A stretch of DNA of 64,000 bases from Candidatus Desulfaltia sp. (GCA_030656555.1 JAUSPN010000040.1:375-64374), one strand, 5' to 3'. Shown: positions 42,573 to 62,331, counted from the stretch's first letter. The notes: generated from the sequence alone by a model not told the origin. Numbers and translations are program-made.

Positions 42573-42574
42573 TA

Positions 42575-42682: not shown

Positions 42683-42704
42683 ATCTCAAAAAAAAGGGAT
42701 AGAG

Positions 42705-43961: not shown

Positions 43962-43964
43962 GTA

Positions 43965-44642
43965 ATGCATATAGGACTTTTTGGCGGTACATTTAATCCG
44001 ATTCATAATGGACATCTAAAAGCTGTCGAAGAAGTGCAAAAGGGGTTTTCTTTAGATGAAATCTATCTTATTCCATCCGCCCTTCCCCCGCACAAAGAGC
44101 AAAAAAATCTTGCTGACGCAAAAAACCGTATGGAGATGATACGCCTCGCTGTTGCAAGCTGCCCTGCCCTTATGAAATCAGTCATTGTTTCCGATGTTGA
44201 GCTGAAACGTTCAGGACTTTCATATACAATCGATACTGTTTGCCATTTCAAATCCATATCACCGAAAAACAGCCGGCTTTATCTTATCCTCGGCCTTGAT
44301 GCTTTCCTTGAGATAGACACATGGAAATCTTATATGGATATTTTCACGCTTGCCTCCTTTATTATAATTCCCAGGCCCGGGACAGGAAGCTCGGATAAGT
44401 CCATTGTCCTGAAATCTATTGAAAATTATCTAAAAAAGAGCATATCTCACGGTTATAACTATTCCTTTTCGCAATCATGCTGTATTCATCCCGATAAACA
44501 GCCTGTTTTTTTCTTTGATATAAGCCCAATAAATATTTCGTCAACAAAAATACGCAAACTTATTAACCAGGGCATATCTGTTAAATCTTTAGTCCCTGAA
44601 AAGGTGGAAGAATTTATTAAAACAAAAGGACTTTATTTATGA
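43965..44642 (+). CDS. nadD: Nicotinate-nucleotide adenylyltransferase
   Basis: GGTFNPIHNGH, PPHK, SYTIDT, ISSTKIR. Confidence 0.96.
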   Translation: MHIGLFGGTFNPIHNGHLKAVEEVQKGFSLDEIYLIPSALPPHKEQKNLADAKNRMEMIRLAVASCPALMKSVIVSDVELKRSGLSYTIDTVCHFKSISPKNSRLYLILGLDAFLEIDTWKSYMDIFTLASFIIIPRPGTGSSDKSIVLKSIENYLKKSISHGYNYSFSQSCCIHPDKQPVFFFDISPINISSTKIRKLINQGISVKSLVPEKVEEFIKTKGLYL

Positions 44643-44995
44643 CCAACGATCTTGATGAACTTCTTGCTCATTACGTTAAAGCAGTTACGGGGAAACAGGC
44701 GATCGATCCTGTGTTTCTTGATGTCCGGGGACTGACTTCTGTCGCAGATTTTTTTATTATTTGCAGCGGCAGTTCAAACCGCCAGGTTATGGCGATTGCC
44801 GAATTTATTAAGGTCGATCTCAAAAAGCATGGAATAAAGCCGCTTAGCGTGGAGGGTATAAAGGATGGGCGCTGGGTTTTGATAGACTACGGCGATGTTA
44901 TCATTCATGTTTTTTATGAACCTTTGCGTGGTTTCTATGACCTTGAAGGATTATGGACAGATGCAAAAAGAGTAAAAACCGATGACAAAGAATAA
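44639..44995 (+). CDS. rsfS: Ribosome silencing factor
   Basis: ADFFIICSGSSNRQV, WVLIDYGDVIIHVF, FYDLEGLW. Confidence 0.96.
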   Translation: MTNDLDELLAHYVKAVTGKQAIDPVFLDVRGLTSVADFFIICSGSSNRQVMAIAEFIKVDLKKHGIKPLSVEGIKDGRWVLIDYGDVIIHVFYEPLRGFYDLEGLWTDAKRVKTDDKE

Positions 44996-46556
44996 AAAAC
45001 CATGTATGTTGATGATTTTAGACGGATGGGGAATCAATCCCAACCAATACGGAAATGCTGTTAATCTTGCCAGAACTCCCTGTCTGGACATGCTGAAGAA
45101 AGAATATCCTAATACCAGCCTCATGTGTTTTGGTGAAGCTGTAGGACTTCCAGAAGGTGTGATGGGCAATTCCGAGGTTGGTCATCTAAATATTGGAGCA
45201 GGAAGGATAGTCTTTCAGGCTTTACTCAGAATAAACACGGCAATTAATGATGGATCGTTTTACGAAAATCAGGCCATAAACTCCATAATATCCAAGGTAA
45301 AGGATAATAATTCCGCGCTTCATATGATGGGGCTTGTTTCAGACGGAGGCGTGCACAGCCATCTGAATCATCTGTTTGCCCTTCTAAATATGGCTAAACA
45401 AAAGGGGCTTAGCCGGGTTTATATACACGTCATAACCGATGGCCGTGACACACTGTCCGACAGCGGAGCAGGATATGTAAAAGATCTGCAGGACTATATC
45501 GACTCAATCAATTTCGGCTTTATCGCGACTGTTTGCGGCCGTTTCTATGCTATGGACAGGGATAGCAGATGGGACCGTACTGAAAAGGCTTTCCGTTTGT
45601 ACACACTTGGTGAAGGAATAAAAGAAAAGGAACCTGTAGAAGCGGTAAAAAACGCTTATATGCGAAAGGAAACCGATGAATTTATCCGCCCAACCGTAAT
45701 TACAGGTAAGGATAATAGCGCCCTGGGAACAATAAAAGATGGTGATGGAATTATATTTTTCAATTTTCGCGTCGACCGTGCCAGACAGATAACTCACGTC
45801 TTTACAGACCCGGTTTTTGATTCATTTAAAAGAGAGTCGCTGCCAAAGCTTTGCGAATATCTCTGCATGACCTTATATGATGAAAAGTTTAATTTGCCTC
45901 TGGCTTTTCCCCCCGTTCATCTGAATAAAATCCTGGGACAGGTAATAAGCGAGCAGGGATTAAGACAGCTCAGAATTGCGGAAACAGAAAAATATGCCCA
46001 TGTAACCTATTTTTTTAACGGCGGAGAAGAAAAGCCTTTCTCGCTCGAAGATCGATGCCTCATCCCGTCGCCACGCGAGGTCGCGACCTATGACTTAAAA
46101 CCCGAAATGAGCGCCGCTCTGGTGACTGAAGAGGTTATTTCACGCTTGCGGTCAAATAGCTATGGCACCTACGACCTGATTGTTCTAAACTTTGCCAATA
46201 TGGATATGGTGGGTCATACAGGAGTTCTTGAGGCTGCAATCAAAGCATGCGAAACAGTTGACAGGTGTGTAAAAAAAATAGTCGATGAAATGCGGCTGAT
46301 AGGCGGAGTTATTCTGATTATGGCAGATCACGGAAATGCAGAAGAAATGATAAATGAAAACGGCCATATCCATACCGCCCATACACTCAATCCTGTTCCT
46401 TTTATATTAGTTGGCGATAATTACAAGGATGCCAAGCTGAAATCCGGCATCCTTGCAGATGTCGCCCCCACCATCCTCAACATCTTAGGGATTGACAAAC
46501 CAGAACAGATGACCGGAAATTCTTTGATTCATCAGCCCGTTAAATTCCCTCTTTGA
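44982..46556 (+). CDS. gpmI: 2,3-BPG-independent phosphoglycerate mutase
   Basis: ILDGWG, MGNSEVGH, SDGGVHSH, AETEKYAHVT, DMVGHTG, ADHGNAE. Confidence 0.97.
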   Translation: MTKNKKPCMLMILDGWGINPNQYGNAVNLARTPCLDMLKKEYPNTSLMCFGEAVGLPEGVMGNSEVGHLNIGAGRIVFQALLRINTAINDGSFYENQAINSIISKVKDNNSALHMMGLVSDGGVHSHLNHLFALLNMAKQKGLSRVYIHVITDGRDTLSDSGAGYVKDLQDYIDSINFGFIATVCGRFYAMDRDSRWDRTEKAFRLYTLGEGIKEKEPVEAVKNAYMRKETDEFIRPTVITGKDNSALGTIKDGDGIIFFNFRVDRARQITHVFTDPVFDSFKRESLPKLCEYLCMTLYDEKFNLPLAFPPVHLNKILGQVISEQGLRQLRIAETEKYAHVTYFFNGGEEKPFSLEDRCLIPSPREVATYDLKPEMSAALVTEEVISRLRSNSYGTYDLIVLNFANMDMVGHTGVLEAAIKACETVDRCVKKIVDEMRLIGGVILIMADHGNAEEMINENGHIHTAHTLNPVPFILVGDNYKDAKLKSGILADVAPTILNILGIDKPEQMTGNSLIHQPVKFPL

Positions 46557-47313: not shown

Positions 47314-47745
47314 TATTCAACCACCCAGACCAACTCCGGGACTTCCGGAACGCCCCTAAAAGAAATGGGGCCACCCATTATCTTTTGTTTTTTTATGGTA
47401 TGATAGCCTTTGGCACTTTTCCCAGGATATTAATTCCTTCATCCACAAATTCACAAAAGGGAAGTTCCCTCTCTATTTGTGCCAGATGCTCTTCGGAAGG
47501 TTCTTCCATTTGCAACTGCCATTTAATCCAAAAGCATTTTCCAGTATAAGGCTTTCCGTCTTTTTCATAAATTAATGCTCCATGTCTGGCGCTTTTATCT
47601 GCATGTTTTCCAAAGAATACAGCGGCTGCCAGAGCAGATGGTGCTTTAATCATGCGTTCATTAGAAATAATAACTGCTTTGTATATGTGTAGTTTCATAA
47701 TTGCCCGATTTTTAATCCAATTTTTCTTATTCAACCACCCAGACC
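47314..47745. repeat. 18-bp direct repeat of the USP gene 3' end flanking a small gene
   Basis: TATTCAACCACCCAGACC at 47314-47331 and 47728-47745. Confidence 0.85.
47393..47698 (-). CDS. Hypothetical protein (101 aa)
   Basis: MKLHIYKAVIISNERMIKAP...; co-oriented just after USP; start placed at ATG 47698. Confidence 0.6.
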   Translation of the reverse strand: MKLHIYKAVIISNERMIKAPSALAAAVFFGKHADKSARHGALIYEKDGKPYTGKCFWIKWQLQMEEPSEEHLAQIERELPFCEFVDEGINILGKVPKAIIP

Positions 47746-48194
47746 GTACAGTTGCGCGCATAGTTGACGATCTTGCTGGAAACACTCCCGAAGAGGAATT
47801 CCTGGCTTCGTGAAAGCCCTTGTCTTCCAACAACTACGGTGCTGTATTCGGCCTCGTCTTTTTCTTCCAGGATGCATGTTGCCATGGAAGGACAGTGGCG
47901 CATTATAGAACGAACCGAAACCACGCTTGGATCAAAACCGCCTTGTATCAATATCTGACGGTAGTCTTCAAGTGTTTTATCAACCTTCTTTTTATGCTGA
48001 TCAAGCCATTTGTCTCTCTCTTCCAAAGTGGGAAAGTAATCTTCCTCGGGTTCAGGAATTACATGCAGGACAGATACCCTGAAGCCTTTAGCGCCTTCCA
48101 GAAGTTTAGCCACATATAAAACCGCACGACGAGCGTTCTCTGACTCATCAACCGCAATAAGGATATTCTTGTTAAAAATATGCTCTTTATTCAT
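47727..48194 (-). CDS. Universal stress protein
   Basis: ILIAVDESENA, VVGRQG, FLFGSVSSKIV. Confidence 0.92.
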   Translation of the reverse strand: MNKEHIFNKNILIAVDESENARRAVLYVAKLLEGAKGFRVSVLHVIPEPEEDYFPTLEERDKWLDQHKKKVDKTLEDYRQILIQGGFDPSVVSVRSIMRHCPSMATCILEEKDEAEYSTVVVGRQGLSRSQEFLFGSVSSKIVNYARNCTVWVVE

Positions 48195-49173
48195 GCTTTT
48201 TCTCCTTGCAAGTCTGCATAAACCCTTCTAAATCCTCCAGCAACTGACCGGTGTTATCATAAAACCAGTTGGCGCCTCGTGAAAAATGCATTAGAACCGT
48301 GTTAAGGATTTCAGGTATATAGGGATAAACCTTTTTTAAGTTTGCCACGCGATTGTGAAAAACAATATTAACATCATCATCTGTCAGCAAACTTAAAGCA
48401 GGATGGTTTTGATTTTTAAGGTCGGTCATCATTAGATCGCCCATTCCTGTCAGAAATATTAAAATATTACCCAAACCAAAAAGATCATAACCATATATAT
48501 TCTCTCTGTGGCGGTAATTATAGTCAAAATCTATCCAGCGGAAATCTCCGCTGTTCCTGTCAATGAAAATATGATCTCTACGGATATCACCGTGTTTCTC
48601 ATTATTTTCGTGTAGAAATTTAACAGCCTTAATACACTCAATATATTTACTTAAAATGTCCGGAAACAGCTCATAAAAATAAGCCTTATGATCAAGCTTT
48701 AAGTTTTGCACATAAGCATGGATAGTTTCTCCATTAATTACGTCTAATACTCTAACAATATTAGCCTTTTCATCTTCTACCGCATATCCATGCATGAAAT
48801 TTTTATGACCGGCTACCAGCTTCAATATGCGCGCCTCTTTTTTTGGGCTTCTAAAGCACTCGAACGGAATGCCTGCTATATTAGCCGTAAACTTTTCATG
48901 AAAAACGAGCTTTAAGATCTTCCTGCTCCCATCAGTCAAGTCAACTGATCGCTTAACCCAGAATTTTTCCTCATCATCAAGCCCGAAACGTCCTTCCTTT
49001 GTATTATGCAGAACCAGAAATGGTTTTTCATTAAGAACAACCACGCTTCCATATTCGACACGGAAAAAATCCGAGGTATCTTTATAAATTTTAAACCGAT
49101 AACTTTCAGGGCGAGGAGATGTCCACCGCGCAATCATTTGATGAAGAGTCTCTTGAGATATAGATTTTGCCAT
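48187..49173 (-). CDS. Protein-kinase-like protein
   Basis: KLVF Lys, KKEARIL alphaC Glu, HGDIRRDH catalytic loop, IDFD. Confidence 0.72.
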   Translation of the reverse strand: MAKSISQETLHQMIARWTSPRPESYRFKIYKDTSDFFRVEYGSVVVLNEKPFLVLHNTKEGRFGLDDEEKFWVKRSVDLTDGSRKILKLVFHEKFTANIAGIPFECFRSPKKEARILKLVAGHKNFMHGYAVEDEKANIVRVLDVINGETIHAYVQNLKLDHKAYFYELFPDILSKYIECIKAVKFLHENNEKHGDIRRDHIFIDRNSGDFRWIDFDYNYRHRENIYGYDLFGLGNILIFLTGMGDLMMTDLKNQNHPALSLLTDDDVNIVFHNRVANLKKVYPYIPEILNTVLMHFSRGANWFYDNTGQLLEDLEGFMQTCKEKKHE

Positions 49174-49346
49174 AACTATTTTTATGTTATTGAAGAACCC
49201 TGTAGCCCCGCTGGAACGGGATCTCCGCTTTGCTCCGACAAGCTACAGGGAATTCGCTCATTATTGCGGTTAAAAAGTCAGCCGGCGGAAATGCGCTCTA
49301 TGGAAGGTTTAAAAAACTTCTTTGGGGGAAAACAGAGAAAAAATAA

Positions 49347-50024
49347 TCAAAGGCCCGCAACCTCTTTGCCGCAATGCTTGCAGACGTTGGCTCTTTTTTT
49401 TATTATTTCAGCGCAAAACGGACATTCCCGCGTATAATGTCTTTCATGTATCTTTTTTATAGATTCATCGACCTGTTTTTGAATAAGCTGATTACCGAAT
49501 TTTACATTTCTGATCGGATCGATCGACTCCAGACATCCAACATCACCAATCATTTCAGCTGCTTTAAGCCTGACCCTTACCGGCTCTGTTGCATCTAAAA
49601 GCAATCTTAATATTGTAATGTCATCCTTTTCCACATAACAGCCGGCAAGAATTGAAAACCCTTTCTTTATAGCCTCTTTCAACATATCCTCCTGTATAAG
49701 GACCTGTTCATCAACAACCTGCCCTGTTGCTCCTGATTTGCTGAAAACAGGCATACATTCGAACGTTCCTGAACTGGGATAGCACATGCATCTGTAAGAA
49801 GCATGATGGCCATAATCTTCCTCAACTTTATCCCACCCCTGATTATATAATGAGCATTCATCATTAAAACATACAAACAGGTAGGGTTCACCCCATCCAA
49901 GGCCGTCGCCCATAGAAACAGGAGGCACCTCCCATAAGTTCATTTCTTTGCCGCAATGAGGACATGTTGGTTTCTCCTGAGATAGTATCTTTTCTAAAAC
50001 TTGTTCCTTTGTTTCAAAATTCAT
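49347..50024 (-). CDS. Zinc-ribbon plus HEAT-like repeat protein
   Basis: CPHC...CFNDEC; RLKAAEMIGDVG; CPFC...CKHC; start placed at ATG 50024. Confidence 0.75.
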   Translation of the reverse strand: MNFETKEQVLEKILSQEKPTCPHCGKEMNLWEVPPVSMGDGLGWGEPYLFVCFNDECSLYNQGWDKVEEDYGHHASYRCMCYPSSGTFECMPVFSKSGATGQVVDEQVLIQEDMLKEAIKKGFSILAGCYVEKDDITILRLLLDATEPVRVRLKAAEMIGDVGCLESIDPIRNVKFGNQLIQKQVDESIKKIHERHYTRECPFCAEIIKKRANVCKHCGKEVAGL

Positions 50025-50197
50025 TGGATTTCCTCTTAAATTAACAGTTTCGTAACGCAACAGTTATTACCTGATATCTCGCATAATACCCTCTTTGATC
50101 AAACAGGTCAATAACAATGACAAAATTAAGATTGCCACACAGCAATGACCAAAATATCCAGCAGGCCGCCGGCAAAAACGGGATAGAACAGGGTGGT

Positions 50198-50815
50198 TTA
50201 TTCTCGATCAGCCTTATTGTCGGCGGGTTTGGGTTTCATCAAATCAGAAAAGCTCATAATTTTTTCAGAATCTTTATATTTATCCAACATTTTTTGCATT
50301 TTTTTAAAATAAGGAAGCTTGTGTTTGATCTTGCCAAAGAGGATGCGGGCAAGGATATACATGGGTATGAATGTGAAGGAATATCCCGCTGATTCTCCCA
50401 GTGCGGGAAGACGGCAAGGCAACAAGAACTCCACATCTAAGAAACGCGTCTGCATCCAGCCCAGGGCAAAGGGGATTGGCCATAAGGAAGAGGCTGCAAG
50501 GGCTATCTGTTTAAAAAATACCTTTCCAAAGGCCTCATTAGCTTCTTTATTACATGCCTTGTAACTCATCTTGTCTTTGGCCATCAGAGCCTGAACAGAA
50601 AGGTTCTGCATCCTTACCATCTTCCGGTTGTCATGATCAATGTACTTTTTATTAAATCTAAAAGCCAGGGAGATGGTAAACTCGCCTATAATGACACAAA
50701 TCACGGATAAGACAAGAATTCCAATAAAATAGCCAATCACAGGATTTGTTGTGATGCGAAAAAAAAAGATCAGAAAGGTGTCAATATTCAAGTAAATGGT
50801 TTGGAAAAAATTCAT
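50198..50815 (-). CDS. Hypothetical membrane protein
   Basis: Hydrophobic segments; SSLWPIPFALGWMQTRF; in an operon with TauE. Confidence 0.75.
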   Translation of the reverse strand: MNFFQTIYLNIDTFLIFFFRITTNPVIGYFIGILVLSVICVIIGEFTISLAFRFNKKYIDHDNRKMVRMQNLSVQALMAKDKMSYKACNKEANEAFGKVFFKQIALAASSLWPIPFALGWMQTRFLDVEFLLPCRLPALGESAGYSFTFIPMYILARILFGKIKHKLPYFKKMQKMLDKYKDSEKIMSFSDLMKPKPADNKADRE

Positions 50816-50921
50816 AAAAAAAGCCGCGTCCTGGGTCTTAAGTATTAATGGGGCGATCTCGCTGGAATCTTATCAGACCCGCAGAGATCTGCCCCCGGTT
50901 AAGTAATTATTTGTCTCAATG

Positions 50922-52091
50922 CTAAAATGGCGGTACAATGCTGAATCCGAGAAATCCCACGCTCGTGTACCGAACGCCCACATAGAGCGCCAATACTATA
51001 AAAAGCCTCTTAAGCCAGACTTCCGGAAAGTACTTTGAGGTACGGGGACCGATCATGGAACCAACAAAGATACCGATAAGCTCAACGCCGATCAACGGCC
51101 AGTAAATCATTGTGCCCTTGACGACCATATAGGTGAAGATACTCACTACCATCCCCACCAATACAGTAAGGGCTGATGTGCCGGCCACTATGAACATGGG
51201 CAGGCCCGCGACACTCGTCAGGAACGGAACGAACAGGAAGCCGCCACCCACACCGATAAACGAAGCTATCATTGCGATAAAAAAGCCACCAAGCACAGGT
51301 ATGATGGGACGGAAACTGAACTCCACTCCATAGAAAGTAAAGACTACCCTGCCAAAGCCAAATTTTTTGATCTTAACACCACGTTTTTCATCTTTTTCAG
51401 CTATATCCTTTCCCTTTACGCTTTCTTCAAAGGCCCTGGCTGCTTTTGAAGCTTCCTTCCTTTTTCTCTGCCCCGCTGGAAGCGTTTCCCACAAGAGAAC
51501 AAATGCTACGGCAAACACGCAAAGCCCAAAGTAGCCTATATACGCTTTCAATGAAATCTTGCCTGCTGTCAGGATTGGCACCAGGATGCTGCCCCCGACA
51601 GCGCCAATGGCCAGGCATATGCCGAGAGGCAACACGAGTCTGCCCATTCTATAGTAATTGAGGCTTGAGATGGCCGCGCTCAAACCTACCAGCCACTGGT
51701 TCGACACCCGGATGCTGTCTGTTATCAGTTTGTTAAGGGTTGGTGACGTCTCCTTAAAGGCCTTGCCGTAATTGGCCAGTCCAAAGATCGTAATATGTCC
51801 AACGCCTGCCATGATCCCTCCAAAAGCGCCTACTGTAGAAAAAATCCAGCCTACCCATATGGCCCAAAAAAAGGCTAAAATTAAACTGGGTGATGGCGCT
51901 CCTGGAATCCCTAACCATCCAGGCTTGGCCTTCGGATCAATCTGGCCCTTTTCGGTGCCCTGGGGTGTTTTGGCAATAGCCTCGGTGAGTCTATCCCCGG
52001 CCGCATGAGCTGAGGCAGCAATCAGAATCGGCGATACAAAGAATACGCTTAGAACAAAGATCGCAAAAAATACTTTCAAGTTTTTACTCAT
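50922..52091 (-). CDS. TauE/SafE (TSUP) family exporter
   Basis: Signal-like N-terminus; STVGAFGGIMAG, IGVGGGFLFVPFL, AGTS; multiple TM helices. Confidence 0.88.
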   Translation of the reverse strand: MSKNLKVFFAIFVLSVFFVSPILIAASAHAAGDRLTEAIAKTPQGTEKGQIDPKAKPGWLGIPGAPSPSLILAFFWAIWVGWIFSTVGAFGGIMAGVGHITIFGLANYGKAFKETSPTLNKLITDSIRVSNQWLVGLSAAISSLNYYRMGRLVLPLGICLAIGAVGGSILVPILTAGKISLKAYIGYFGLCVFAVAFVLLWETLPAGQRKRKEASKAARAFEESVKGKDIAEKDEKRGVKIKKFGFGRVVFTFYGVEFSFRPIIPVLGGFFIAMIASFIGVGGGFLFVPFLTSVAGLPMFIVAGTSALTVLVGMVVSIFTYMVVKGTMIYWPLIGVELIGIFVGSMIGPRTSKYFPEVWLKRLFIVLALYVGVRYTSVGFLGFSIVPPF

Positions 52092-52194
52092 TTTTCCTCC
52101 TCACTCCTTTAAATGTTTGAATATTTGAGACCTTTGAAAAATGTTCATGCAGTTATGCAAAGGTCTATCTGTGTGAAACCTTTAGAAAGTTTTT

Positions 52195-52210
52195 TGCAAG
52201 CAATATGCCA
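52195..52210 (-). promoter_or_regulatory. Sigma-54 -24/-12 promoter for the TauE operon
   Basis: TGGCATATTGCTTGCA on the minus strand (GG-N10-GC). Confidence 0.75.
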
Positions 52211-52502
52211 TAGACACTTTTGTCCTGAATAAATCTTTTTAATTCAGCCCTGGTTTAGCTTGATGTTACAATAAAAATCTTTTACTTGGCTGTTATTACT
52301 GAGCATTTGGCAGGGCAATGCTGAAACGGTTTAAAGGAGGATAGTTGTGTATAGAAAGATATATTATTTTTTATAAGAAGTGATATACAGATAACATGAA
52401 GCGTAAGCTGCTAAAAACAGATGACAATTTGGAGGATATATGAAGGTATGATCTATAATTACAAAAGGTTATATGTTATAAAAGGTTTTAGTTGCAGAGC
52501 AG

Positions 52503-53906
52503 TTAATTTCTTGCACTTTTTCTAAATTTAGCTGATTTAATATTGCATTTTTTCATAATCTGTTGCGAAGATTGCTTTTTCAGCTCGCATAGTTGGGCAG
52601 CTCTTGTTACATTGCCGCCTGTTTTCTGCAAGGCTTTAGTTGCATAATTAATATTAAAATCTTGCAAAACCCGCTGTTTTGCCTTTCGATATAGAAGGTC
52701 TTCCTCTTTTTTAAAAGAAAAGCCCTTTTGTTTAGAAGCAATATCCCATCCAATATCAGAAACTTTAACTTTATCGCCAGGCGCCATAACCACCGCTTTC
52801 TTTATAATATTTTCTAATTCCCTTACATTGCCGTTCCAGTCGCTGTCTAAAAATAGCCCCATTAGCTCAGGAGATAGTTGCTTATTTTTCCTGTTAAACT
52901 TTGCGCAATATTTTTTCAGGAAAAATTCAGTCAAAAGGGGTATATCCTCTTTTCGTTCCCTTAATGGAGGCATATTTATGTCAACCACACAGAGCCTGTA
53001 ATAGAGGTCTCTGCGAAATTTGTTTTCCTCCATCCTAACCTTTAAGTTGATATTCGTAGACGCAATAATCCTTACATCAACATGCATTGTCTTAGTACAG
53101 CCAAGTGGTTTAAATTCTTTGTCCTCCGATATCTGCAAAAGTTTTGTCTGGACAGACGGACTGATGTCTCCAATTTCATCAAGAAAGATAGTGCCTCCAT
53201 CAGCCTCTTCAAAAAGTCCTTTCCTGGTTTGAACGGCATTGGTAAAGGCTCCCTTTGTGTAACCAAAAAGTTCACTTTCCAATATGTTTTCCGGGATAGT
53301 AGGACAGTTTATCCGAACATATGGTTTGTTACTGCGATGACTTAATGCATGTATGGCCTTTGCGGCAAGATTCTTGCCGGTGCCTGAGTCTCCGGTAATT
53401 AACACGGCAACATCGGTTTTGCTGATTATCTGTATAGTATCATACACCTTCTGCATGCATAGACTGGCACCAACAAAGTTCTGAAAGGTTTCCTCTTCCC
53501 TGATACGCTCTCGAAGGTTCAGATTCTCTCGCAGTAAGCGGCTCCGTTCCAAAGCCTTTTGCAAAAGATGTATGAGGTGGTCGTGATCAAACGGTTTGGT
53601 AATAAAGTCGTAAGCCCCTTTCTTGATCGATTCCACCGCAACTTCTATAGCGCCGTGCGCTGTCATCATGATTACCGTGAGCCATTGGTCGAGCTGTTTG
53701 ATCCGTTCAAGAAGTTCAATCCCGTTCATGCCCGACATGCGTATATCCACAAGGGCGAGATCAAACGGTTTTTGTTCAACAAGGCGGAAGGCCTCTTCAC
53801 CGCTTAAAGCTGTTTCGATCTCGCAGTCAATATGCTGTGGGATAGATCTACTCAGAAGCTTAAGCATATCTATTTCATCATCAACAATTAAGATTCTTGT
53901 TTTCAT
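52503..53906 (-). CDS. Sigma-54-dependent response regulator (NtrC family)
   Basis: REC domain, GDSGTGKNLAA, ESELFG, GAFTNA, WNGNVRELEN, HTH. Confidence 0.94.
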   Translation of the reverse strand: MKTRILIVDDEIDMLKLLSRSIPQHIDCEIETALSGEEAFRLVEQKPFDLALVDIRMSGMNGIELLERIKQLDQWLTVIMMTAHGAIEVAVESIKKGAYDFITKPFDHDHLIHLLQKALERSRLLRENLNLRERIREEETFQNFVGASLCMQKVYDTIQIISKTDVAVLITGDSGTGKNLAAKAIHALSHRSNKPYVRINCPTIPENILESELFGYTKGAFTNAVQTRKGLFEEADGGTIFLDEIGDISPSVQTKLLQISEDKEFKPLGCTKTMHVDVRIIASTNINLKVRMEENKFRRDLYYRLCVVDINMPPLRERKEDIPLLTEFFLKKYCAKFNRKNKQLSPELMGLFLDSDWNGNVRELENIIKKAVVMAPGDKVKVSDIGWDIASKQKGFSFKKEEDLLYRKAKQRVLQDFNINYATKALQKTGGNVTRAAQLCELKKQSSQQIMKKCNIKSAKFRKSARN

Positions 53907-55888
53907 AGTGTTGTATTGTCATAAACAGGAAGCGTAACAATAAATGTCGCTCCATTTCCAGGCTCACTTTGCACAGAAATTTCACCGTTATGTTCCTTAA
54001 TAATTCCATAGCTTACTGAAAGGCCAAGGCCTGTGCCCAGACCGGTCGGCTTGGTAGTAAAAAATGGATCAAATATCTTGTTGATAATATTAGTCGGAAT
54101 GCCGGAGCCGCTATCTTCAACGATAACACATACCCTGTTATGGTTTGGCGCAAATGTCTTAATAGTAATATCTCCGGATTCTGATATTGCCTGCCTGGCA
54201 TTCATTAAAAGGTTCATAAAGACCTGTTTGAGTTTTTCCTCGTCTCCAGTGACAGGTTGTATGCTTTCATCAAGAACTGTTACAAGACTTACATTGTCAA
54301 GTTCGAATTGATGTCTGATAACGGCAATTATATTTTTGATGGTCTGGTTTATATTTATCGCTATTTTTTGTGTTTCCGTTTTTCTGGCAAAATTCAGCAG
54401 GGCTTCAACAATTATTTTGCAATTACATGTTTGCTTTTCTATTGTTTTAAGGTCTTCAAATACTTGAGGACCTTTAGATTCACCACGCATCAAAAGCTGT
54501 GTGTATCCAAGAATCAGGCCGAGCGGATTATTGATTTCATGGGCTATTCCCGCAGAAAGCTGGCCAAGAGAGGCCAGCTTATCGGCCTGAAGCAACTGCT
54601 GCTTCATATCTTTCCATATAGTGATATCCTTTATTATCCCTTCATGTCTAAGTATCTGACCTGTTTCGTCTTTTTGAGCCGTGCTGCTGAAAAGAGCTTG
54701 AAGTTCACAACCGTTTTTTGTCTTTAATTTATATTCCATGTCTTTGATAAATCCTTTAGACCCGATTTCATTAAGCATGTTTTCATAATGCTCAGTCTCG
54801 ACAAAGAGATCGGCCAGATTCACGGATTGAAGGAAGTCTTCTCTGGTGTCATAGCCAAGCATTTCAATGCCGGCCCGGTTGATATCTATAAAGCGGCCAT
54901 GGTTGCCGGCTATAAATATCAGGTCTATAGAGCCTTCGAATATTCGGCGATACCTCTTTTCGGATTTTTCTATAGTTTCTGCTGATTGTTTTAATTGCGT
55001 TATATTGTTTTTCAAGGTCAGGGCCATGGCATCAAAGGCCTCTGCCATTTCCTGGATCTCGTCACCCGATAGCCTGGAATATACCTCACAGGTCCGGCAG
55101 CTAATAATTTTTTTTGCATATTTACCGTCAATGCAATTCGGGCACATGGTGCCCGCAAGATACCAGCAGCGCCTGCGCCTGTCACCATAAGCAGAGCATG
55201 CCTCTCTGTTGCAGCTCATGATTTCCCAGCAGTTTTTGTTCAACAATGGGGCTGTCTGGATATCCAGATCGCCGCTTAATGCTTTTTCAGATGCCTGGCG
55301 CAGCTTTTTTACTCTTTTTGTAACCTGATCGGCAAAACCTGCCCCAACAAGACCGGCAATAAGTATTGTCAATCCGGTTAATAGAAAGATCGTTCCCAAT
55401 AGATCTTTGATCGTTTGTTCAATTCTTGTTCTTGAAAGACCCAGCCGCACAGTTCCAAGCCGGTGATTTTCTATGAACACAGGCGCAGCAACATCGTAAA
55501 TCAGATATTCTCCGGTATCCAGGAGCCTGATGCTGTAATCCTGATCTTTTGAAACACTGTTCGCTTTTTTAAGCTCGACTGGAAAGCCTTCCTGAAATGT
55601 GTGAGCCAGGGTCTGTCCATTTTGATCAAGTATAAATGCGTATGGAATATCATCGCCTGAATCAGAGACTTCATCGATCAGATCCTTCATGCGAAGGAAA
55701 TCCACAGCCAGAATCGGGTCCTGGGCTCGGGCGGCGAGGTTTAAGGCAATGGATATTCCTCTGTGTTTACACTCGGTCGATAATGCTTCTGCAACTATTA
55801 TTCTCACAGACAGAGCCATCAGCAGCCCTGAGAGCAGAACTATGGAAATGATGCCGGTGTAAACTTTTCCTCTAAAGCTAAATTTCAT
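53903..55888 (-). CDS. Membrane histidine kinase: HAMP with 8-Cys insert, PAS, HisKA, HATPase
   Basis: Two TM helices; CWEIMSC...CWYLAGTMC...CRTC; HEINNP, MNARQA, DSGSG, GTGLG. Confidence 0.92.
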
Positions 55889-55893
55889 TTTGC

Positions 55894-56820
55894 TTATCTA
55901 TCCAGATCAATTCCCAACCCTGTCAACAGGTTTCTAACAGAATTAAATTCCGAATCTTTAGAGTGAGCAACACCTGTGATATCGGCCATATCGAGTATTT
56001 TTCTATGTTCAGGGTTATCATAATTTAGCCTCAAGAGAGCATCTCTTATCCTGCCGACAATTTCCGGGTCGAGTTCTCGCCGCGAAGCATATACCCAACC
56101 AGGATACCATTTACTGTGTGCAACAACCCTGATCTGACCTATGTCGATCTTGTCGGCCACAACATTCAGCGTCCCTTCCCGAATGGAGCCTATGTCATAT
56201 TTGCCCGCATATACGGCAAGGACCACTTTTTCCTGTTTACCACCCGGACCTGGAGAAAAGGCGATTTCAGCAAAGTCTTTTTTGGTAATGCCGTGGTCAT
56301 AAAAATGCCCCAACGGATAAAGATATCCACCGGCAGATGATGGATCAACAGCAATCCAGCGCTTGCCTTTGCAATCTTCAAGCGTTTTTATCTTCTTATT
56401 GTCAGAGCGGCATATGATCTGTCCTCTAAAGTTTTTCTTGCCGTAAACTTCTATCACCTGCGCAAAGGCGCCGGCTCCACAGCGATGGGCAATCTTTACG
56501 TAAACACAGGGATTGGAAAACGAAATATCTATCTTGCCCTGCTCTACCATCCTCATGTGTTCGTCAAAGGTGTCAGGAAATACCTGTTTAATGTTAAGCC
56601 CTGTTTCCTTTTTAAGATACTCTATCAGCAAGTAATGTCTTTGATAGGAAACAGTGTGTGAATATTGCGGCAGATAGGCATATGTAATCGCATTTTCTGC
56701 CTCTTTTACATATACTGCTTCCCGTTTGCTCAGGTCAATTTTTTGAACCAATTCGTCTTCAAAGCAGCCACAAAACAAAAAGTTTGTTAATAAAAGTATT
56801 ATTGAAATCCCTTTTTTCAT
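55894..56820 (-). CDS. PhnD/SsuA-like periplasmic oxyanion-binding lipoprotein
   Basis: Lipobox-like LFCGC; YLPQYS, FSNPCVY, DPSSAGGY, YDIGSIRE; start placed at ATG 56820. Confidence 0.85.
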   Translation of the reverse strand: MKKGISIILLLTNFLFCGCFEDELVQKIDLSKREAVYVKEAENAITYAYLPQYSHTVSYQRHYLLIEYLKKETGLNIKQVFPDTFDEHMRMVEQGKIDISFSNPCVYVKIAHRCGAGAFAQVIEVYGKKNFRGQIICRSDNKKIKTLEDCKGKRWIAVDPSSAGGYLYPLGHFYDHGITKKDFAEIAFSPGPGGKQEKVVLAVYAGKYDIGSIREGTLNVVADKIDIGQIRVVAHSKWYPGWVYASRRELDPEIVGRIRDALLRLNYDNPEHRKILDMADITGVAHSKDSEFNSVRNLLTGLGIDLDR

Positions 56821-57112
56821 AATTATTATCCGTTGAACTGCAATGGTGAGCAAATTAAACAGTTTCTATGCAGAATATGTCCAAATGTCAAGATGATTGA
56901 CCTCATGGTGCAATTTTTATATTGCAGAACAATAGTATTATTTTAGCATTATGTATTTCATTAATATCATAGGATAAATATTTACTATCCTCTTTCAACT
57001 GTCACTGTAATATTGCATTCAAAACCTAATTTATAAAACTATTTTCAATACATATCATAAAATTAGCGTATAACCTACTGTAATAGTAATATAAATCACG
57101 CATGCCAACAAT

Positions 57113-57128
57113 CGGCACTCTTTTTGCA
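57113..57128 (+). promoter_or_regulatory. Sigma-54 -24/-12 promoter for the oxidoreductase operon
   Basis: CGGCACTCTTTTTGCA (GG-N10-GC), 50 nt before the ATG. Confidence 0.72.
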
Positions 57129-57178
57129 ATTGTTTTTAGTAGTTGGTCTATACTAATTAACCTATAGAGAGTAAAAAT

Positions 57179-59977
57179 ATGCAAGACAGTAAATCAATAA
57201 AGGCAACGGCAAAGGCGCTTCAATTTCTATCCACCTTGTATCGTGACGAAATACCTCTTGATTTAGTAAGCATGATGCAAAAAGCCGATTTTACAGAAAA
57301 GCTTTCCGGCGCTGCAAAGGAATCAGGTGCCGGCATTTTTGAGGAAGCTGTTTCTCAGATAACCTCATTTTTGAACGCCGGCAACAAAGAAAAGGTTTAT
57401 AAAGAACTAAGCTACGAGTATGCTGATCTATTCCTGAACGCCGGGGCAAACCCGGTTTTCCCCTATGAATCCGTTCATGTAAGTAAAGAACCGGTTGTAA
57501 TGCAAGCGCCTGTTTTCGAACTGCGCAAGGCTTTTTATAAGGCCGGCGTACACAAATCTGAAGACTACAAAGATCTTGATGAGCACATTGCCGTGGAGAT
57601 AGAATTCCTAAGATATCTTCTGGACATGGAAATGACAGACAAATACACCGAATTTTTCAAAGACAGGTTCTTAGCCTGGGTGCCCTCTTTTTGCGAACAG
57701 CTTGAAAATTGCGCTCAAACCGATTTCTACAAAGGCCTGGCCAAACTTACCCGGGCGGTTATTGAGTGTTCCATGACTACCCTGTCTGAATCTGCAGGAG
57801 ATGCTGAAAAAGCTATAAATAGTTTAGCTGCTTCTGTAGGCGAGCTGAATTTAGATTCAGGATATGTTACCCTAACTGAAGGATCTGTTGAGCCTGAACC
57901 GGCAAAGAATATCCCGAGCCATTGTTACACCTGCGGCGCTCTTTGCGGAATGGTGGCAAACCTAAAGGACGGTATACTTGTAAAAACTTCCGGCCTTCCC
58001 GGAGATCCCAAGGGAGGCGGAAGGCTCTGTCCCAAAGGAGCTTCCGCAAACAAACATCTCTACTCCCCTTACAGATTAAAAAGCCCTATGATAAAGGAAA
58101 ATGGTCGTTTCCGCAAGGCAAGCTGGGATGAAGCCCTGGATAGAGTGGTCCAGGGAATTAAGAGCATTGAGCAGGGTAAACTTGGCTATTTCAGAGGTAA
58201 TGACTATGTAAACTGGATACATGAAGCCCTCTTTGACCATCTCGGCTGCCCCAAAGGCACTCACAGGACAATGTGCGACAACTCCAACCGCATGGCAAAC
58301 GAGCATAATTTAAATGACAAACGCCCCTGGATAAACTATCAAGAATCGGATTATATTATTCATTTTGGGATAAATGAACTCGCAACATCAATCGGTCAAC
58401 GCAAAACGGCCGAATTTAGAGAGGCGATCAAAAACCGTGCAAAACTTGTTGTCTTTGATCCGAGAAAATCCGAAACAGCTTCTTCCGCAACTGAGTGGAT
58501 ACAGATAAAACCGTCAACAGATGGCGCCGTGGCAATGGCCATGTGTTATGTTATCATTAAAAATGATCTGTATGATAAAGAATTTGTGGCCGACTGGACT
58601 TACGGATTTGAAGAATTTAAAAAGAGAGTTTTAGGAGAAGAGGATGGCGTTGCCCGCACCCCTGAGTGGGCCGAAAAGATAAGCGGCGTTCCAGCCAAAA
58701 CCATTGAGCGTATTGCTGTTGAATTCGCCGGCTCTAAAAATAAAGGCGTAATCTCGTGGGCCGGAGTTGCCCAGGGGCCAAACTCAATGTATGCCACAGC
58801 CGCTATTCAGGCATTAAACGGTCTCTGCGGCGCCTTTGACGCGCCAGGCGGCCCTTCACTGCCTTTTAAACGCAAGCTGAAGTCTGCCTGGGGGGAGGGC
58901 CAGGAAAAACCGCCAAAGACACCAGCCCCCAAACTCGACAAATTTGGCCTCTGGTCAGGCTGGGCGCCGGCAAACATGTTGGCCGATGTTGAAGCTGGAA
59001 AGCTTAAAGGGATGATCACATATTTTGGCGATCCTGTATTATCAGCCGGCAACCAGGAAGCCATCACCAAGGCTATTGAGATGATGGGGTTTAATGCAAT
59101 TATCGAGGCTTACATGTGCAACACAGCTCTCCTCTGCGACGTTATTCTCCCTGATGCCACATGGATGGAGCAGGCACAGATCAAACCGGACTGGCTTTAC
59201 GACGCCTTTATCGGCTACTATGCCGAAGTGGTAAAGCCGATGTACAACACAAAGCCCATATGGAAAATAATTGTCGAGCTGGCCGGCAAACTAAATCTTG
59301 GACACTTCTTCCCATGGGAAAACATCGAAGAGGCATTCCGCAATCAGATGGCAGGTCTCCCATGGTCTTTTGATGAACTAAAAGAAAAAGGATTTATTAT
59401 CACCGACGAAGCTGAATATTATAAATATAAAAAGTGGGGCTCACTCAACCCACCTGAAGGTTATGGATCATCAGGTAATACAAAAACCGGAAAATATAAC
59501 TTCCTGAACCCAGTGGCCCGGGAAAAAGGCATAGACCCGCTTCCTGACTATAAAGAACCGGATAAAGAGTTCCAGCCGGATGAAGAATATCCCTTTATCT
59601 TCGGCAACTTCAGAGTTCTTGGGCACGAACACTCTTCAACATTCAACAATTACTATCTCATGAAGCAATATAGCACAAATCCACTCTGGATCAATATGCT
59701 TGACGCTCAGAAACTGGGAATAACCGAAGGGGACAGGGTAAAGCTCAAGTCTCCATGGGGCGAGGTCGATATGGTGGCCAACCCAACATGGCGCATTATG
59801 AGCGGAGTTCTGGCAACTGCCGGAGGTTTCGGCCATATCCGGGGCATAGAGGGTGATCCAAAGTATCCGCAGTTCGGCGGGGTAAACACTCCAGGCATTA
59901 TGAAGCCTAACACAACCGAAGAAATCGGCGGCACCCCCCTGCGCAAGTATATAAAAACCAAAGTTGTAAAATTATAG
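57179..59977 (+). CDS. TorD/DmsD chaperone fused to a Mo/W-bisPGD oxidoreductase (PsrA/PhsA-like)
   Basis: PYES and DEHIAVEIEF chaperone motifs; CYTCGALC...LCPKG 4Fe-4S; HRTMCD Cys ligand; DVILPDATWME; molydopterin-binding C-terminal domain. Confidence 0.88.
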   Translation: MQDSKSIKATAKALQFLSTLYRDEIPLDLVSMMQKADFTEKLSGAAKESGAGIFEEAVSQITSFLNAGNKEKVYKELSYEYADLFLNAGANPVFPYESVHVSKEPVVMQAPVFELRKAFYKAGVHKSEDYKDLDEHIAVEIEFLRYLLDMEMTDKYTEFFKDRFLAWVPSFCEQLENCAQTDFYKGLAKLTRAVIECSMTTLSESAGDAEKAINSLAASVGELNLDSGYVTLTEGSVEPEPAKNIPSHCYTCGALCGMVANLKDGILVKTSGLPGDPKGGGRLCPKGASANKHLYSPYRLKSPMIKENGRFRKASWDEALDRVVQGIKSIEQGKLGYFRGNDYVNWIHEALFDHLGCPKGTHRTMCDNSNRMANEHNLNDKRPWINYQESDYIIHFGINELATSIGQRKTAEFREAIKNRAKLVVFDPRKSETASSATEWIQIKPSTDGAVAMAMCYVIIKNDLYDKEFVADWTYGFEEFKKRVLGEEDGVARTPEWAEKISGVPAKTIERIAVEFAGSKNKGVISWAGVAQGPNSMYATAAIQALNGLCGAFDAPGGPSLPFKRKLKSAWGEGQEKPPKTPAPKLDKFGLWSGWAPANMLADVEAGKLKGMITYFGDPVLSAGNQEAITKAIEMMGFNAIIEAYMCNTALLCDVILPDATWMEQAQIKPDWLYDAFIGYYAEVVKPMYNTKPIWKIIVELAGKLNLGHFFPWENIEEAFRNQMAGLPWSFDELKEKGFIITDEAEYYKYKKWGSLNPPEGYGSSGNTKTGKYNFLNPVAREKGIDPLPDYKEPDKEFQPDEEYPFIFGNFRVLGHEHSSTFNNYYLMKQYSTNPLWINMLDAQKLGITEGDRVKLKSPWGEVDMVANPTWRIMSGVLATAGGFGHIRGIEGDPKYPQFGGVNTPGIMKPNTTEEIGGTPLRKYIKTKVVKL

Positions 59978-60020
59978 TATTGAAGGATTTGCAAAAAAAA
60001 TTATATTTTATGGGCAACAT

Positions 60021-60194
60021 TGATGAATTCGTAAAAAGTCCCTTTAGCCTGTCATTTCGAGTGAAACGAGAAATCCTTGTTTCGACGACAGGAGAAATCT
60101 TGCTGCAACCTATTGAAAAGATAAGATTTCTCCCTGTGGTCGAAATGACACAAATGACACATTCGATGAATCCGACTTTTTACGAGTTCATCAA
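60021..60194. mobile_element. MITE-like element: 21-bp terminal IRs around a REP-like palindrome
   Basis: TTGATGAATTCGTAAAAAGTC / GACTTTTTACGAGTTCATCAA; inner GTCATTTCGA/TCGAAATGAC and GGAGAAATCT/AGATTTCTCC. Confidence 0.8.
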
Positions 60195-60225
60195 CATTGA
60201 GTAATTTTGGGAAAAGGAGAACTCT

Positions 60226-61584
60226 TTGAAAAAAGGCAAAACGCTTGTTTTTGTATCATTTATTTTGTTATCATTATTTTTAATGAGCCTCACCCCAATT
60301 GTCTCATTTGCCAGAGCAATTACAATTGACAGCGAATGTATAAACTGTCACACCAACCTGAAAAAACTGATCCGTCTTTGCTGGGAAATCGAAAAAACAA
60401 GGTCAAAGGCGGGTAACTCGGCTGAAACATCCGGTGAAGGATGAGGCGGGCCGCTGGCTCCGTTGGAGTTATACGAAAAGATCTACGTTAATCCCTCTTT
60501 TTTAAAAACCGATCATGGTGAAATTGCATGTGTGACCTGCCACAGTGGAGATCCAAAAAACCCAGACTGGCAAACAGCGCACAAGGGAATCGTTAGAGAC
60601 CCCACATTTCCTGATGCCGGCAATACATGCGGGGAATGCCATGAAGATATTGTTAAAACCGCTAAAAACAGCCTGCATTTTACTCTGGCGCCTTTTAAAA
60701 AGATTATTGAAACACGGGCCAACAAACATGATAAGACTGTTTTTAAAAAGGTCTGCGGGGCAGCAGAAAAGCACTGCAACGCTTGTCACTCCAGTTGTGG
60801 TCAGTGCCATGTAAGCCGTCCTGATTACGCCAAAGGCGGCTTTCTGGCCGGTCATCTCTTCCAGAAAAAACCGTGTATGGACACAACATGTTCGAGCTGC
60901 CACGGCGGTCGGGTGTACGGAGAATTTACAGGTTTAAACGACGGATACCCGGCAGATGTTCATTATGAGAAAAAGGAGATGACGTGCATGGACTGCCACA
61001 CCGGAGAAGAGATGCACGCTGATGCCTCAGGTCTGTCCAGCAGGTTTGATCTTCCCGAGCGACCGGCATGCAAAAAATGCCACCCAAATGTTCTGTCTGA
61101 AAAACCTGAAACCAGGTCGCATAGCATTCACAGAGAGAAGGTTGCATGCCAGGTCTGTCATGTTGTAGCCAATAAAAACTGCTTTGGTTGCCATGTGGGA
61201 ACCGATAAAAAAGGGCTCCCCTTTTACAAGTCCGGAGAGACCAAAATGCTCTTTAAAATCGGACTCAACATAAACAAGACAAACGAGAGGCCCTATAACT
61301 ATGTGGTTTTGCGGCATCCGCCGGCAGATCCGGGGCTGTTTGATTTTTATGTAAAGAATGGACTGGCGGATTTTGATAAGCTTCCGACCTGGAAGCTTGA
61401 TACACCCCACAGTATTCAGCGGATAACCCCGCAGAACAAGACCTGCAATAACTGTCACGGCAATCCCGCACTCTTTTTGCAGGAAAAAGATGTAACCGGA
61501 TGGGAACGTAAGGCCAATGCCGGTGTAATTGTTCCGGACAATAAGATACCGGAACCTGTAAAAGAGGAGGCTGCCAAACAATGA
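60226..61584 (+). CDS. Exported 11-heme cytochrome c with in-frame UGA (probable selenocysteine), 452 aa
   Basis: ORFs 60226-60444 and 60463-61584 share one frame, split only by TGA at 60442-60444; signal peptide; 1+10 CxxCH motifs. Confidence 0.82.
60457..60469 (+). promoter_or_regulatory. Candidate bacterial SECIS apical stem-loop
   Basis: GCTCC-GTT-GGAGT starting 13 nt after the UGA, with G first in the loop. Confidence 0.5.
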
Positions 61585-61682
61585 TGAGTTCATAAAAAGT
61601 TAAATTCATCAGGTGCCAGGGATCAGGTTAAAGTAATTATCTGTTTTATCAAGCTCTTAACACTTAACACATTTCGTAAAAA
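61582..61682. repeat. Composite repeat, sister of 42575-42682 with the core inverted
   Basis: TGATGAGTT..AATTCATCA-GGTG then TCAGGTTAAAGTAATT...TTAACAC. Confidence 0.8.
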
Positions 61683-61693
61683 AGGAGGAAGAA

Positions 61694-62275
61694 ATGAAGC
61701 ACGTTAAAAGGACATTGGTACTATCTATTGCTCTGGTTTTTGTTTTAAGCGGACTTGCCTTTGCAGGATTCGCATACAAGGTAGAAAAGGCTCATATCGG
61801 TGGCGATCTCACACCCTCGGAGGCCTTTGAGATGATCGAAAAAGATCCAGGCCATACCTTTCTGGTTGATTGCAGAACCCGTGCCGAATATCAATTAATC
61901 GGCTACCCAAAAGGGGCCTGCAATATCCCTTTGCAATTCTGGACCGGCAAGTTTGGGGAAAAGGAATATGGAAATGCCGCTAATCCTGATTTTGGCAAGG
62001 ATCTTCTGGCCCGGTTCAATCCAAAGACCGACACATTGTTGTTTATATGCCGGAGCGGCAGCAGGAGCTGCGCTGCATGCAACGAAGCGGTTAAGGCGGG
62101 ATTTGCCGAAAACAAGGTGTTTAATGTAATGGGCGGTTTTGAAGGGGGCAAGGTAAAATGCAAATCAAGCGCTTACTCAGGCCAGCGCAAGCTTGGCGGA
62201 TGGCGCAATGAAGGCCTTCCCTGGACATATCATATGGACAAAAAACTGGTCTATCAACCTGATATCGCAAAATAA
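61694..62275 (+). CDS. Exported single-domain rhodanese
   Basis: Signal peptide; LVDCRTRAEY, active loop CRSGSR, NVMGGFEG, GWRNEGLPW. Confidence 0.92.
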   Translation: MKHVKRTLVLSIALVFVLSGLAFAGFAYKVEKAHIGGDLTPSEAFEMIEKDPGHTFLVDCRTRAEYQLIGYPKGACNIPLQFWTGKFGEKEYGNAANPDFGKDLLARFNPKTDTLLFICRSGSRSCAACNEAVKAGFAENKVFNVMGGFEGGKVKCKSSAYSGQRKLGGWRNEGLPWTYHMDKKLVYQPDIAK

Positions 62276-62297
62276 CAAATTCCTCTGTCTCACAATT

Positions 62298-62331
62298 AAA
62301 GGCTCACGCTGCCACAGTGTGGGCCTTTTTT
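62298..62331 (+). terminator. Intrinsic terminator ending the oxidoreductase operon
   Basis: AAAGGCTCAC...GTGGGCCTTT stem followed by a T run. Confidence 0.7.

Follow-up and report, generated by a model that had tools for sequence, protein, structure and literature searches.

A sigma-54-associated cassette with a TorD-fused cytoplasmic molybdoenzyme, apparently inserted among resident genes of Candidatus Desulfaltia sp.

The sensors TtrS and ThsS recognize tetrathionate and thiosulfate through PhnD-like domains and are encoded beside a reductase (PMC5408782). The AioXSR and ArxXSR systems join a transporterless PhnD-family protein, a membrane kinase and a sigma-54 NtrC-type regulator to a -24/-12 promoter and a molybdenum (Mo) enzyme operon (PMC5908839, PMC4563254). 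Among sulfur enzymes, PsrABC and PhsABC are characterized by the MopB fold, an FS0 [4Fe-4S] motif and a Cys metal ligand (Thermus thermophilus PsrA, 2VPW; Salmonella PhsA). A Phs-type, PhsAB-like enzyme without a twin-arginine (Tat) leader has been proposed to cleave thiosulfate in the cytoplasm of Dissulfuribacter thermophilus and Desulfolithobacter dissulfuricans (PMC13490349), and the MOLY cluster (MolyABC) of Desulfobacterota combines a Psr/Phs/Ttr-like Mo enzyme with a TorD-type chaperone (PMC12998232, PMC9676032). The locus described here shares features with these systems and lies in a 64,000-nucleotide stretch of Candidatus Desulfaltia sp. (GCA_030656555.1, JAUSPN010000040.1:375-64374), hereafter the window, with positions counted from its first letter. 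An earlier note, made from the sequence alone, had proposed that the genes at 47393-62331 form a single sulfur-oxyanion or polysulfide sensing and redox island under one sigma-54 activator. The present analysis separates this interval into a 10.15-kb cassette (50122-60274) and its surroundings. The cassette is best read as a lineage-specific, horizontally acquired insertion among unrelated resident genes, and probably represents a self-contained, self-regulating sigma-54 regulon that would sense, import and reduce a sulfur oxyanion in the cytoplasm.

Searches with Pfam and NCBIfam confirmed the earlier gene list throughout, including the Cys-rich kinase and the UGA-containing 11-heme cytochrome, while the HEAT part ascribed to the Zn-ribbon protein was not detected with either database. 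The centre of the cassette is formed by three minus-strand genes in the order PhnD-kinase-NtrC. They encode a PhnD-family exported binding protein (55894-56853; PF12974, 198 bits), a sensor histidine kinase (53903-55888) with a periplasmic sCache_3_2 domain, a HAMP domain split by a Cys-rich insert, and PAS, HisKA and HATPase domains, and an NtrC-type sigma-54 activator with REC and AAA+ domains (52503-53906), the start of which overlaps the kinase stop by 4 bp. A TauE/SafE (TSUP) family anion permease (50922-52091; PF01925, 79.7 bits over a gathering score of 32.6) and its partner, a membrane protein of 205 aa without a Pfam match (50198-50815), are encoded on the same strand. The enzyme is encoded on the plus strand as a TorD-domain::MopB fusion of 932 aa (57179-59977), assigned by its Pfam domains.

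The window was compared by blastn and tblastx with G024 (locus L089), a genome of the same genus. Both are collinear at 86-91% DNA identity over 39591-46528, 49305-50121 (Zn-ribbon gene) and 60275-62274 (cytochrome and rhodanese genes), while nothing in locus L089 of G024 corresponds to 50122-60274. There, the Zn-ribbon and cytochrome genes are direct divergent neighbours, about 180 bp apart. The Mo enzyme was absent from 18 of 18 sampled genomes of the same family, comprising 8 other congeners and 10 other confamilials. As the 10.15-kb block is missing from collinear G024 and the enzyme from these 18 genomes, the block is read as a gain in this lineage. An independent Logan contig of the source metagenome spans the left junction and covers 49224-60058 at an even depth of 38.1, and the right-hand contig has a depth of 38.8. 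Logan contigs break only within a repeat between the Mo and cytochrome genes, and a mis-join is disfavoured since synteny with G024 resumes exactly past this repeat. The contig lay-out also showed a "joint" from 60154 to 52149, which was not reproducible and was treated as a repeat artefact.

Homologues of the TorD::Mo protein with 51-79% identity were found at 62 loci in Desulfohalobium retbaense, Desulfosarcina widdelii, many metagenome-assembled genomes of Desulfobacterota, and Archaeoglobales, and over these 62 loci the family is confined to Desulfobacterota and Archaeoglobales. Neighbours were counted in the 23 loci with at least 3 kb visible on both sides. TauE occurred in 14 of them, the small membrane partner in 12, the NtrC activator in 7, and the PhnD-type protein with the sCache kinase in 5, while the cytochrome, the rhodanese and the kinase-like gene occurred in none. 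All six cassette gene kinds are also present, in other arrangements, at loci L052, L036, L022 and L026. The PhnD-like gene adjoins the kinase gene in every related locus that holds it, and the partner gene comes after TauE. The 205-aa protein is homologous to a bacterial partner of 199 aa (hhalign 83.5%, E 8e-6) and to the archaeal partner (90%, E 1.6e-6), and a SEED-style annotation labels the partner "transmembrane protein co-occurring with TauE". In Archaeoglobales, the enzyme, TauE and the partner are accompanied by a LysR regulator in place of the sigma-54 sensor set.

Synteny across Desulfobacterota was thus found for TauE, the Mo enzyme and the sensor parts, but not for the cytochrome and the rhodanese, which lie near 0 and 1 of the 62 Mo-enzyme loci, respectively. 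The proposal of one sigma-54 regulon holds accordingly for the circuit of PhnD-like protein, kinase and NtrC activator with its TauE and Mo-enzyme arms, which are co-conserved elsewhere. Its extension to the cytochrome, rhodanese, Zn-ribbon, kinase-like and universal stress protein (USP) genes is not supported, given the collinear congener without the cassette, the rarity of the cytochrome and rhodanese at the Mo loci and the kinase-like gene in family members that lack the enzyme. A full-text literature search returned no description of a system joining TorD, TauE and a cytoplasmic molybdoenzyme. Judged from comparative genomics, the core is a real, conserved and undescribed system of sigma-54 sensor, permease and cytoplasmic molybdoenzyme.

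Other genes also recur beside Mo/TauE loci. They encode a phosphoenolpyruvate (PEP)-synthase-like protein (PPDK_N plus mobile domain), a DSP-phosphatase/CxxCxxCC protein and a single-domain receiver; examples are L026 17046-19559 and L036 12837-13961. In Desulfovermiculus-type loci (L022, L024 and L036), a double-PhnD protein, an sCache kinase and NtrC are encoded upstream of TauE, and a different conserved palindrome, GTTCCATTTGGGACAA ... TTGTCCCAAATGGAAC, stands ahead of the sigma-54 site.

Both outward-facing -24/-12 promoters of the earlier note are real, each with 10 of 11 consensus positions. The promoter of the TauE arm (TGGCAT-N5-TTGCA, 52195-52210, minus strand) lies 119 nt from its first gene, and that of the Mo-enzyme arm (cGGCAC-N5-TTGCA, 57113-57128, plus strand) 66 nt from its own. 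The whole 2.73-Mb genome, in which rpoN is present, holds 21 sites of 10/11 quality, and two of these flank the activator operon. Of 55 loci, 12 have sigma-54-like sites of at least 9/11 in the 350 nt preceding the Mo gene, compared with about 0.03 per gene expected by chance. They were also found upstream of TauE, or of the small membrane gene leading its operon, in 14 loci. A third 10/11 site of the window, TGGCACAACTATTGCT at 28779-28794 on the plus strand, lies outside the cassette.

A candidate activator palindrome, TGCAATTTTTATATTGCA (TGCAAT-N6-ATTGCA), occupies 56909-56926, 204 bp upstream of the -24 element. The exact motif occurs as a single copy in the host genome, and several copies stand between the divergent promoters of related loci. 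With up to one mismatch, its density over the 600 bp preceding the Mo gene exceeds that in the rest of the loci 28-fold. The activator of the window is 53-61% identical to the activators of loci with the same palindrome. A shared activator site was sought in both promoter regions, and the Mo side alone was convincing.

These components suggest a circuit that begins outside the cytoplasmic membrane. The exported PhnD-family protein would capture an oxyanion there and signal to the sCache histidine kinase; its gene is accompanied by no ATP-binding cassette (ABC) transporter genes, and the protein is presumed to be a co-sensor, with its true start likely at the ATG at ~56820. In 8 of 8 PhnD-paired kinases, the HAMP domain contains this conserved Cys-rich insert, and the cytoplasmic insert is a possible second redox or metal input. 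The kinase would then phosphorylate the NtrC-type activator, which would bind TGCAAT-N6-ATTGCA and open both outward -24/-12 promoters. One of them would yield the TauE/TSUP permease and its small membrane partner to carry the anion across the membrane, with import favoured. The other would yield the cytoplasmic Psr/Phs-type molybdoenzyme, in which the fused TorD domain would stand in place of a Tat leader.

Compared with the described sensors, the binding protein gave a weak match to the TtrS model of NCBIfam, but TtrSR and ThsSR carry the PhnD domain on the kinase polypeptide itself and use a regulator that does not depend on sigma-54. The layout is that of AioXSR and ArxXSR. However, the binding protein of the window is far from AioX (E 1e-8) and nearer to PtxB, the kinase is distinguished by its sCache domain and Cys-rich HAMP insert, and the target enzyme is Psr/Phs-like and cytoplasmic.

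The enzyme itself consists of a TorD/NarJ domain at residues ~1-200 followed by a complete MopB catalytic subunit (PF04879, PF00384 and PF01568). No twin-arginine motif was found in the N-terminus or the linker of the fusion, and the enzyme is located in the cytoplasm. Its nearest solved structure is Thermus PsrA (2VPW) with 233 bits. The Mo-ligating Cys173 of PsrA aligns with the Cys of TMCDNS, and the FS0 cluster motif is present. PhsA is the top NCBIfam match with 263 bits, below the cut-off of 694 bits. The PsrA and PhsA matches, the score under the cut-off and two unconserved PsrA residues, given below, assign the protein, at the level of sequence, to Psr/Phs-like Mo/W-bisPGD enzymes that are cytoplasmic, single-subunit and outside the characterized families.

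Neither a four-cluster B subunit nor an NrfD-type C anchor was found at 47-62 kb of the window. The lack of B and C subunits, already pointed out in the earlier note, is a family-wide trait of this enzyme: a poly-ferredoxin-like neighbour occurs in only 4 of 60 related loci, and NrfD-like partners are almost never adjacent. A soluble low-potential donor, for example ferredoxin, would presumably supply electrons to the single FS0 cluster. The enzyme thereby differs from PsrABC and PhsABC, as it has a fused TorD domain instead of a Tat leader, no PsrB or PsrC genes beside it and a cytoplasmic location. The Tat-less PhsAB-like enzyme, which is likened here by description and whose function was proposed (PMC13490349), differs in lacking a TorD fusion and in having its B subunit as a separate protein. 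MolyABC, with its B subunit and a chaperone encoded apart from the enzyme, is predicted to be extracellular and is associated with neither TauE nor a sigma-54 sensor. Membership in the MOLY cluster was rejected, since the chaperone is fused here and both B subunit and signal are lacking. Chaperone-enzyme fusions are unmentioned in a survey paper on redox enzyme maturation proteins (REMPs).

A sulfur oxyanion or sulfane compound has, on these sequence relationships, slightly better than an even chance of being the substrate. It is favoured by the Psr/Phs affinity of the enzyme, by the TSUP permease, by the restriction to dsr-bearing lineages and by one proteome under thiosulfate disproportionation. 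In that proteome of D. thermophilus, TauE and the co-occurring membrane protein rise, the "PEP synthase" adjoining the TauE pair is up by 3.4 log2 units, and the authors propose that the Tat-less PhsAB-like enzyme reduces thiosulfate in the cytoplasm (PMC13490349). Thiosulfate itself is the leading single candidate, although a tentative one. Its products, sulfite and sulfide, would feed the Dsr pathway of the host, a groundwater sulfate-reducer with dsrAB.

The same cassette might instead act on a non-sulfur substrate, such as arsenite or arsenate, selenate or selenite, tellurite, or phosphite, in detoxification or respiration of the AioXSR/ArxXSR kind. This is considered unlikely, but it survives better than the other alternatives. 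AioXSR and ArxXSR likewise combine a PhnD-like protein, a kinase and a sigma-54 activator with a Mo enzyme in this layout (PMC5908839, PMC4563254). The PDB matches of the binding protein are PtxB (1e-15), HtxB (2e-11), AioX (1e-8) and ArrX (1e-7), a putative selenate-binding-protein family of NCBIfam scores 70 bits, and an ArsB/CitMHS-type permease is encoded downstream in D. retbaense. However, the enzyme is nearest to PsrA and PhsA, while ArrA and TtrA reach 129 and 61 bits, respectively. There are also no ars or arr genes in the loci, the distribution tracks dsr-bearing lineages, and the one available proteome shows a thiosulfate response of TauE and its partner (PMC13490349).

It is less probable still that the enzyme is oxidative or disproportionating, for example on a sulfite- or sulfane-type substrate, with TauE as the exporter of the product. 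In its original description, cited in PMC3949148, TauE was an exporter of sulfite or sulfoacetate, and the Dissulfuribacter authors suggest that it exports sulfate or sulfite (PMC13490349). Yet an extracytoplasmic sensor protein argues for an external substrate coming in, no acceptor module is encoded, and Psr/Phs-type enzymes are reductases. The product export put forward in the earlier note is no better supported than substrate import.

Several findings weigh against the preferred reading of the cassette as an acquired regulon for a sulfur oxyanion. Phosphite and hypophosphite binders are the best-scoring matches of the PhnD-like protein, followed by arsenic binders. The sequencing runs that contain this stretch are DNA runs, with no RNA run among them. 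In the enzyme, PsrA His145 and Arg332, which line the active site of PsrA, align with a Gly and a gap, and genes for an electron donor are lacking. For the TauE promoter, the palindrome is represented only by weak copies that lie 290-430 bp upstream and deviate at 2-3 positions, so that the same activator is likely to control the TauE arm as well, though with less certainty. The cassette borders show neither a target-site duplication nor a mobility gene (integrase or transposase), and no direct or inverted repeats of at least 9 bp were found at them. Finally, the polarity of the insertion or deletion, as read from the alignments, rests on a single collinear congener together with phyletic absence.

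To the right of the cassette, the cytochrome and rhodanese genes form a pair of their own. The cytochrome gene (60226-61584, plus strand) has a TTG start, 11 CxxCH motifs and an in-frame UGA at 60442-60444. Next comes the gene of an exported rhodanese (61694-62275, plus strand; Pfam), which has a signal peptide and the loop CRSGSRS. The rhodanese, of 190-193 aa, is the constant partner and follows the cytochrome in the unrelated contexts of L066, L067 and L068 and also in L089. The loci of the selenocysteine (Sec) cytochrome include L066-L068 and L078-L082, and no sigma-54 site was found upstream of the cytochrome in 8 genomes. The cytochrome of G024 shares 89% identity with it. Among 201 genomes of the class, 23 have the cytochrome and 12 the Mo enzyme, and the two are adjacent only here; both occur together in 4 genomes compared with ~1.4 expected, numbers too few to interpret. 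From its gene contexts, the pair is an autonomous two-gene resident module and not an original member of the cassette. In one unrelated genome, a TauE gene encoding 311 aa stands divergently beside the Sec-cytochrome/rhodanese pair (L067 6600-7535).

In L044 (340-3810), an unrelated contig, only 76 bp separate a TorD::Mo gene of 57% identity from a subsequent rhodanese gene that is 81% identical to that of the window, and no cytochrome was found in the assembled part of that genome. This adjacency is a lone hint of a link between enzyme and rhodanese and is outweighed by the other evidence.

The UGA specifies Sec at residue 73, within SGEG-U-GGPLAPLE, and 9 homologues share it in frame. The nucleotides after it, CTGGCTCCGTTGGAGC, are invariant in the 9 homologues, synonymous sites included, and this invariance fits a selenocysteine insertion sequence (SECIS) hairpin. 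A SECIS-like hairpin is located at ~60454-60470. Since the single-sequence fold after the UGA was no better than those of shuffled sequences, the argument for a SECIS rests on the invariance among the 9 homologues in place of folding. Conservation on both sides of the UGA, the SECIS-like hairpin and the Sec machinery together agree with what is expected of a bacterial selenoprotein; the host has two tRNA-Sec genes (ARAGORN) and two selB genes above the family cut-off (C95:10709-12601 and C31:4171-6069). Homologues number in the hundreds, and nearly all are annotated as fragments of ~370 aa that start past the UGA. A homologue from Syntrophales (P0225) has Trp at the Sec position.

No NCBIfam model past its cut-off and no PDB relative was found for the cytochrome, and it is absent from the cytochrome selenoproteins listed in a 2026 review (PMC13188914). 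From its sequence features, it is read as an undescribed selenoprotein family. An identity with MccSep (ExtKL) was rejected, as the cytochrome has 11 hemes against 5 and a different Sec site, and the ExtKL model is not among its NCBIfam matches (PMC13510729). MccSep and the ExtH rhodanese of Geobacter sulfurreducens nevertheless offer a functional analogy for the resident pair. In MccSep the Sec motif is C-terminal (...DGUPTPNR), while in the 11-heme cytochrome Sec lies in the N-terminal part. By analogy with MccSep/ExtH and Sud, the pair may handle polysulfide or sulfane sulfur in the periplasm.

The Mo and cytochrome genes are separated by a gap of 248 bp (59978-60225). Within it, a MITE-like interspersed repeat with terminal inverted repeats and a hairpin of ~170 nt (60019-60195) sits exactly at the right border of the cassette and has 33 matches in its own genome. 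The hairpin reaches -76 kcal/mol (z = -6.4) and shows no clear U-tract. In G024, a TTGACA-17-TATATG element overlapped by a palindrome with a 19-bp stem precedes the cytochrome (L089 10228-10276), a region lost in the window; the palindrome may be an operator for native regulation of the cytochrome. As the insertion removed the native upstream region of the cytochrome, the pair may depend on read-through from the Mo gene, and such read-through into the cytochrome and rhodanese genes is possible from the layout. In the most far-reaching reading, which is unlikely, the cassette would be a mobile plug-in for the sensing, uptake and cytoplasmic reduction of thiosulfate or a related sulfur intermediate, and would have rewired the resident pair under the same sigma-54 signal into a new pathway of two compartments for sulfur intermediates.

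The genes to the left of the cassette are on the minus strand. The Zn-ribbon protein (49347-50060; Pfam/NCBIfam), with ribbons at both ends, is resident. Its gene is 86% identical in G024 at the DNA level and adjoins the cytochrome gene there. A sigma-70-like promoter (50111-50083), within the stretch common to G024, precedes the gene, and a terminator-like hairpin (50172-50158) stands 3' of the 205-aa gene and upstream of the Zn-ribbon gene. The kinase-like protein (48187-49173) matches Pkinase under the threshold. Its gene is found with 68-91% identity in 15 of 18 genomes of the same family, all 15 without the Mo enzyme, and is by this distribution a resident family-core gene unrelated to the cassette. 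The protein is very strongly conserved, at 79-91% identity in several genera of the family and at 59-66% outside the family but within the order. A USP gene (47727-48194; Pfam/NCBIfam) overlaps the end of the kinase-like gene. In G024, genes for a CBS protein and a Na+/H+ exchanger occupy the place of the kinase-like gene beside the Zn-ribbon gene. The Zn-ribbon and kinase-like genes, and with them the overlapping USP gene, are read as resident neighbours and not cassette members. An open reading frame (ORF) at 47393-47833 matches no family and runs into the USP gene, and is on these grounds probably not a gene.

A direct relay between Mo enzyme, selenoheme cytochrome and rhodanese, as earlier suggested, is unsupported and topologically implausible, since the enzyme is cytoplasmic, the cytochrome and rhodanese carry signal peptides and no membrane electron conduit is encoded. 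That all genes, from the relay and the TauE exporter to the Zn-ribbon, kinase-like and USP genes, evolved as one sigma-54-coordinated regulon is the least probable alternative and very improbable: all are transcribed in the direction of the two promoters, the Mo-cytochrome gap contains no strong intrinsic terminator, read-through is plausible with the native upstream region of the cytochrome removed, and the L044 homologue directly precedes its rhodanese gene, but the pair stands alone in unrelated contexts without an upstream sigma-54 site, is exported while the enzyme is cytoplasmic and follows the -76 kcal/mol hairpin, a congener has the same flanks without the cassette, the kinase-like gene is family-core, and the Zn-ribbon gene is set apart from the membrane-partner gene by a terminator-like hairpin together with a sigma-70-like promoter.

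Half of the island proposed earlier is resident DNA, which cautions against equating gene neighbourhood with regulon membership. The cytoplasmic enzymes for thiosulfate and sulfur intermediates in sulfate reducers and disproportionators are still genetically unidentified. The cassette offers a compact candidate, with a sensor trio, two promoters, a candidate activator site, a permease pair and a one-subunit enzyme, in which the fused TorD domain forms a natural tether between chaperone and client. Relatives in the cultured Desulfohalobium retbaense and Desulfosarcina widdelii make experiments possible, and the congener lacking the enzyme provides a natural comparison with and without it. If the far-reaching reading as a mobile plug-in is true, the cassette would be the genetically unidentified soluble thiosulfate reductase system of sulfate reducers.

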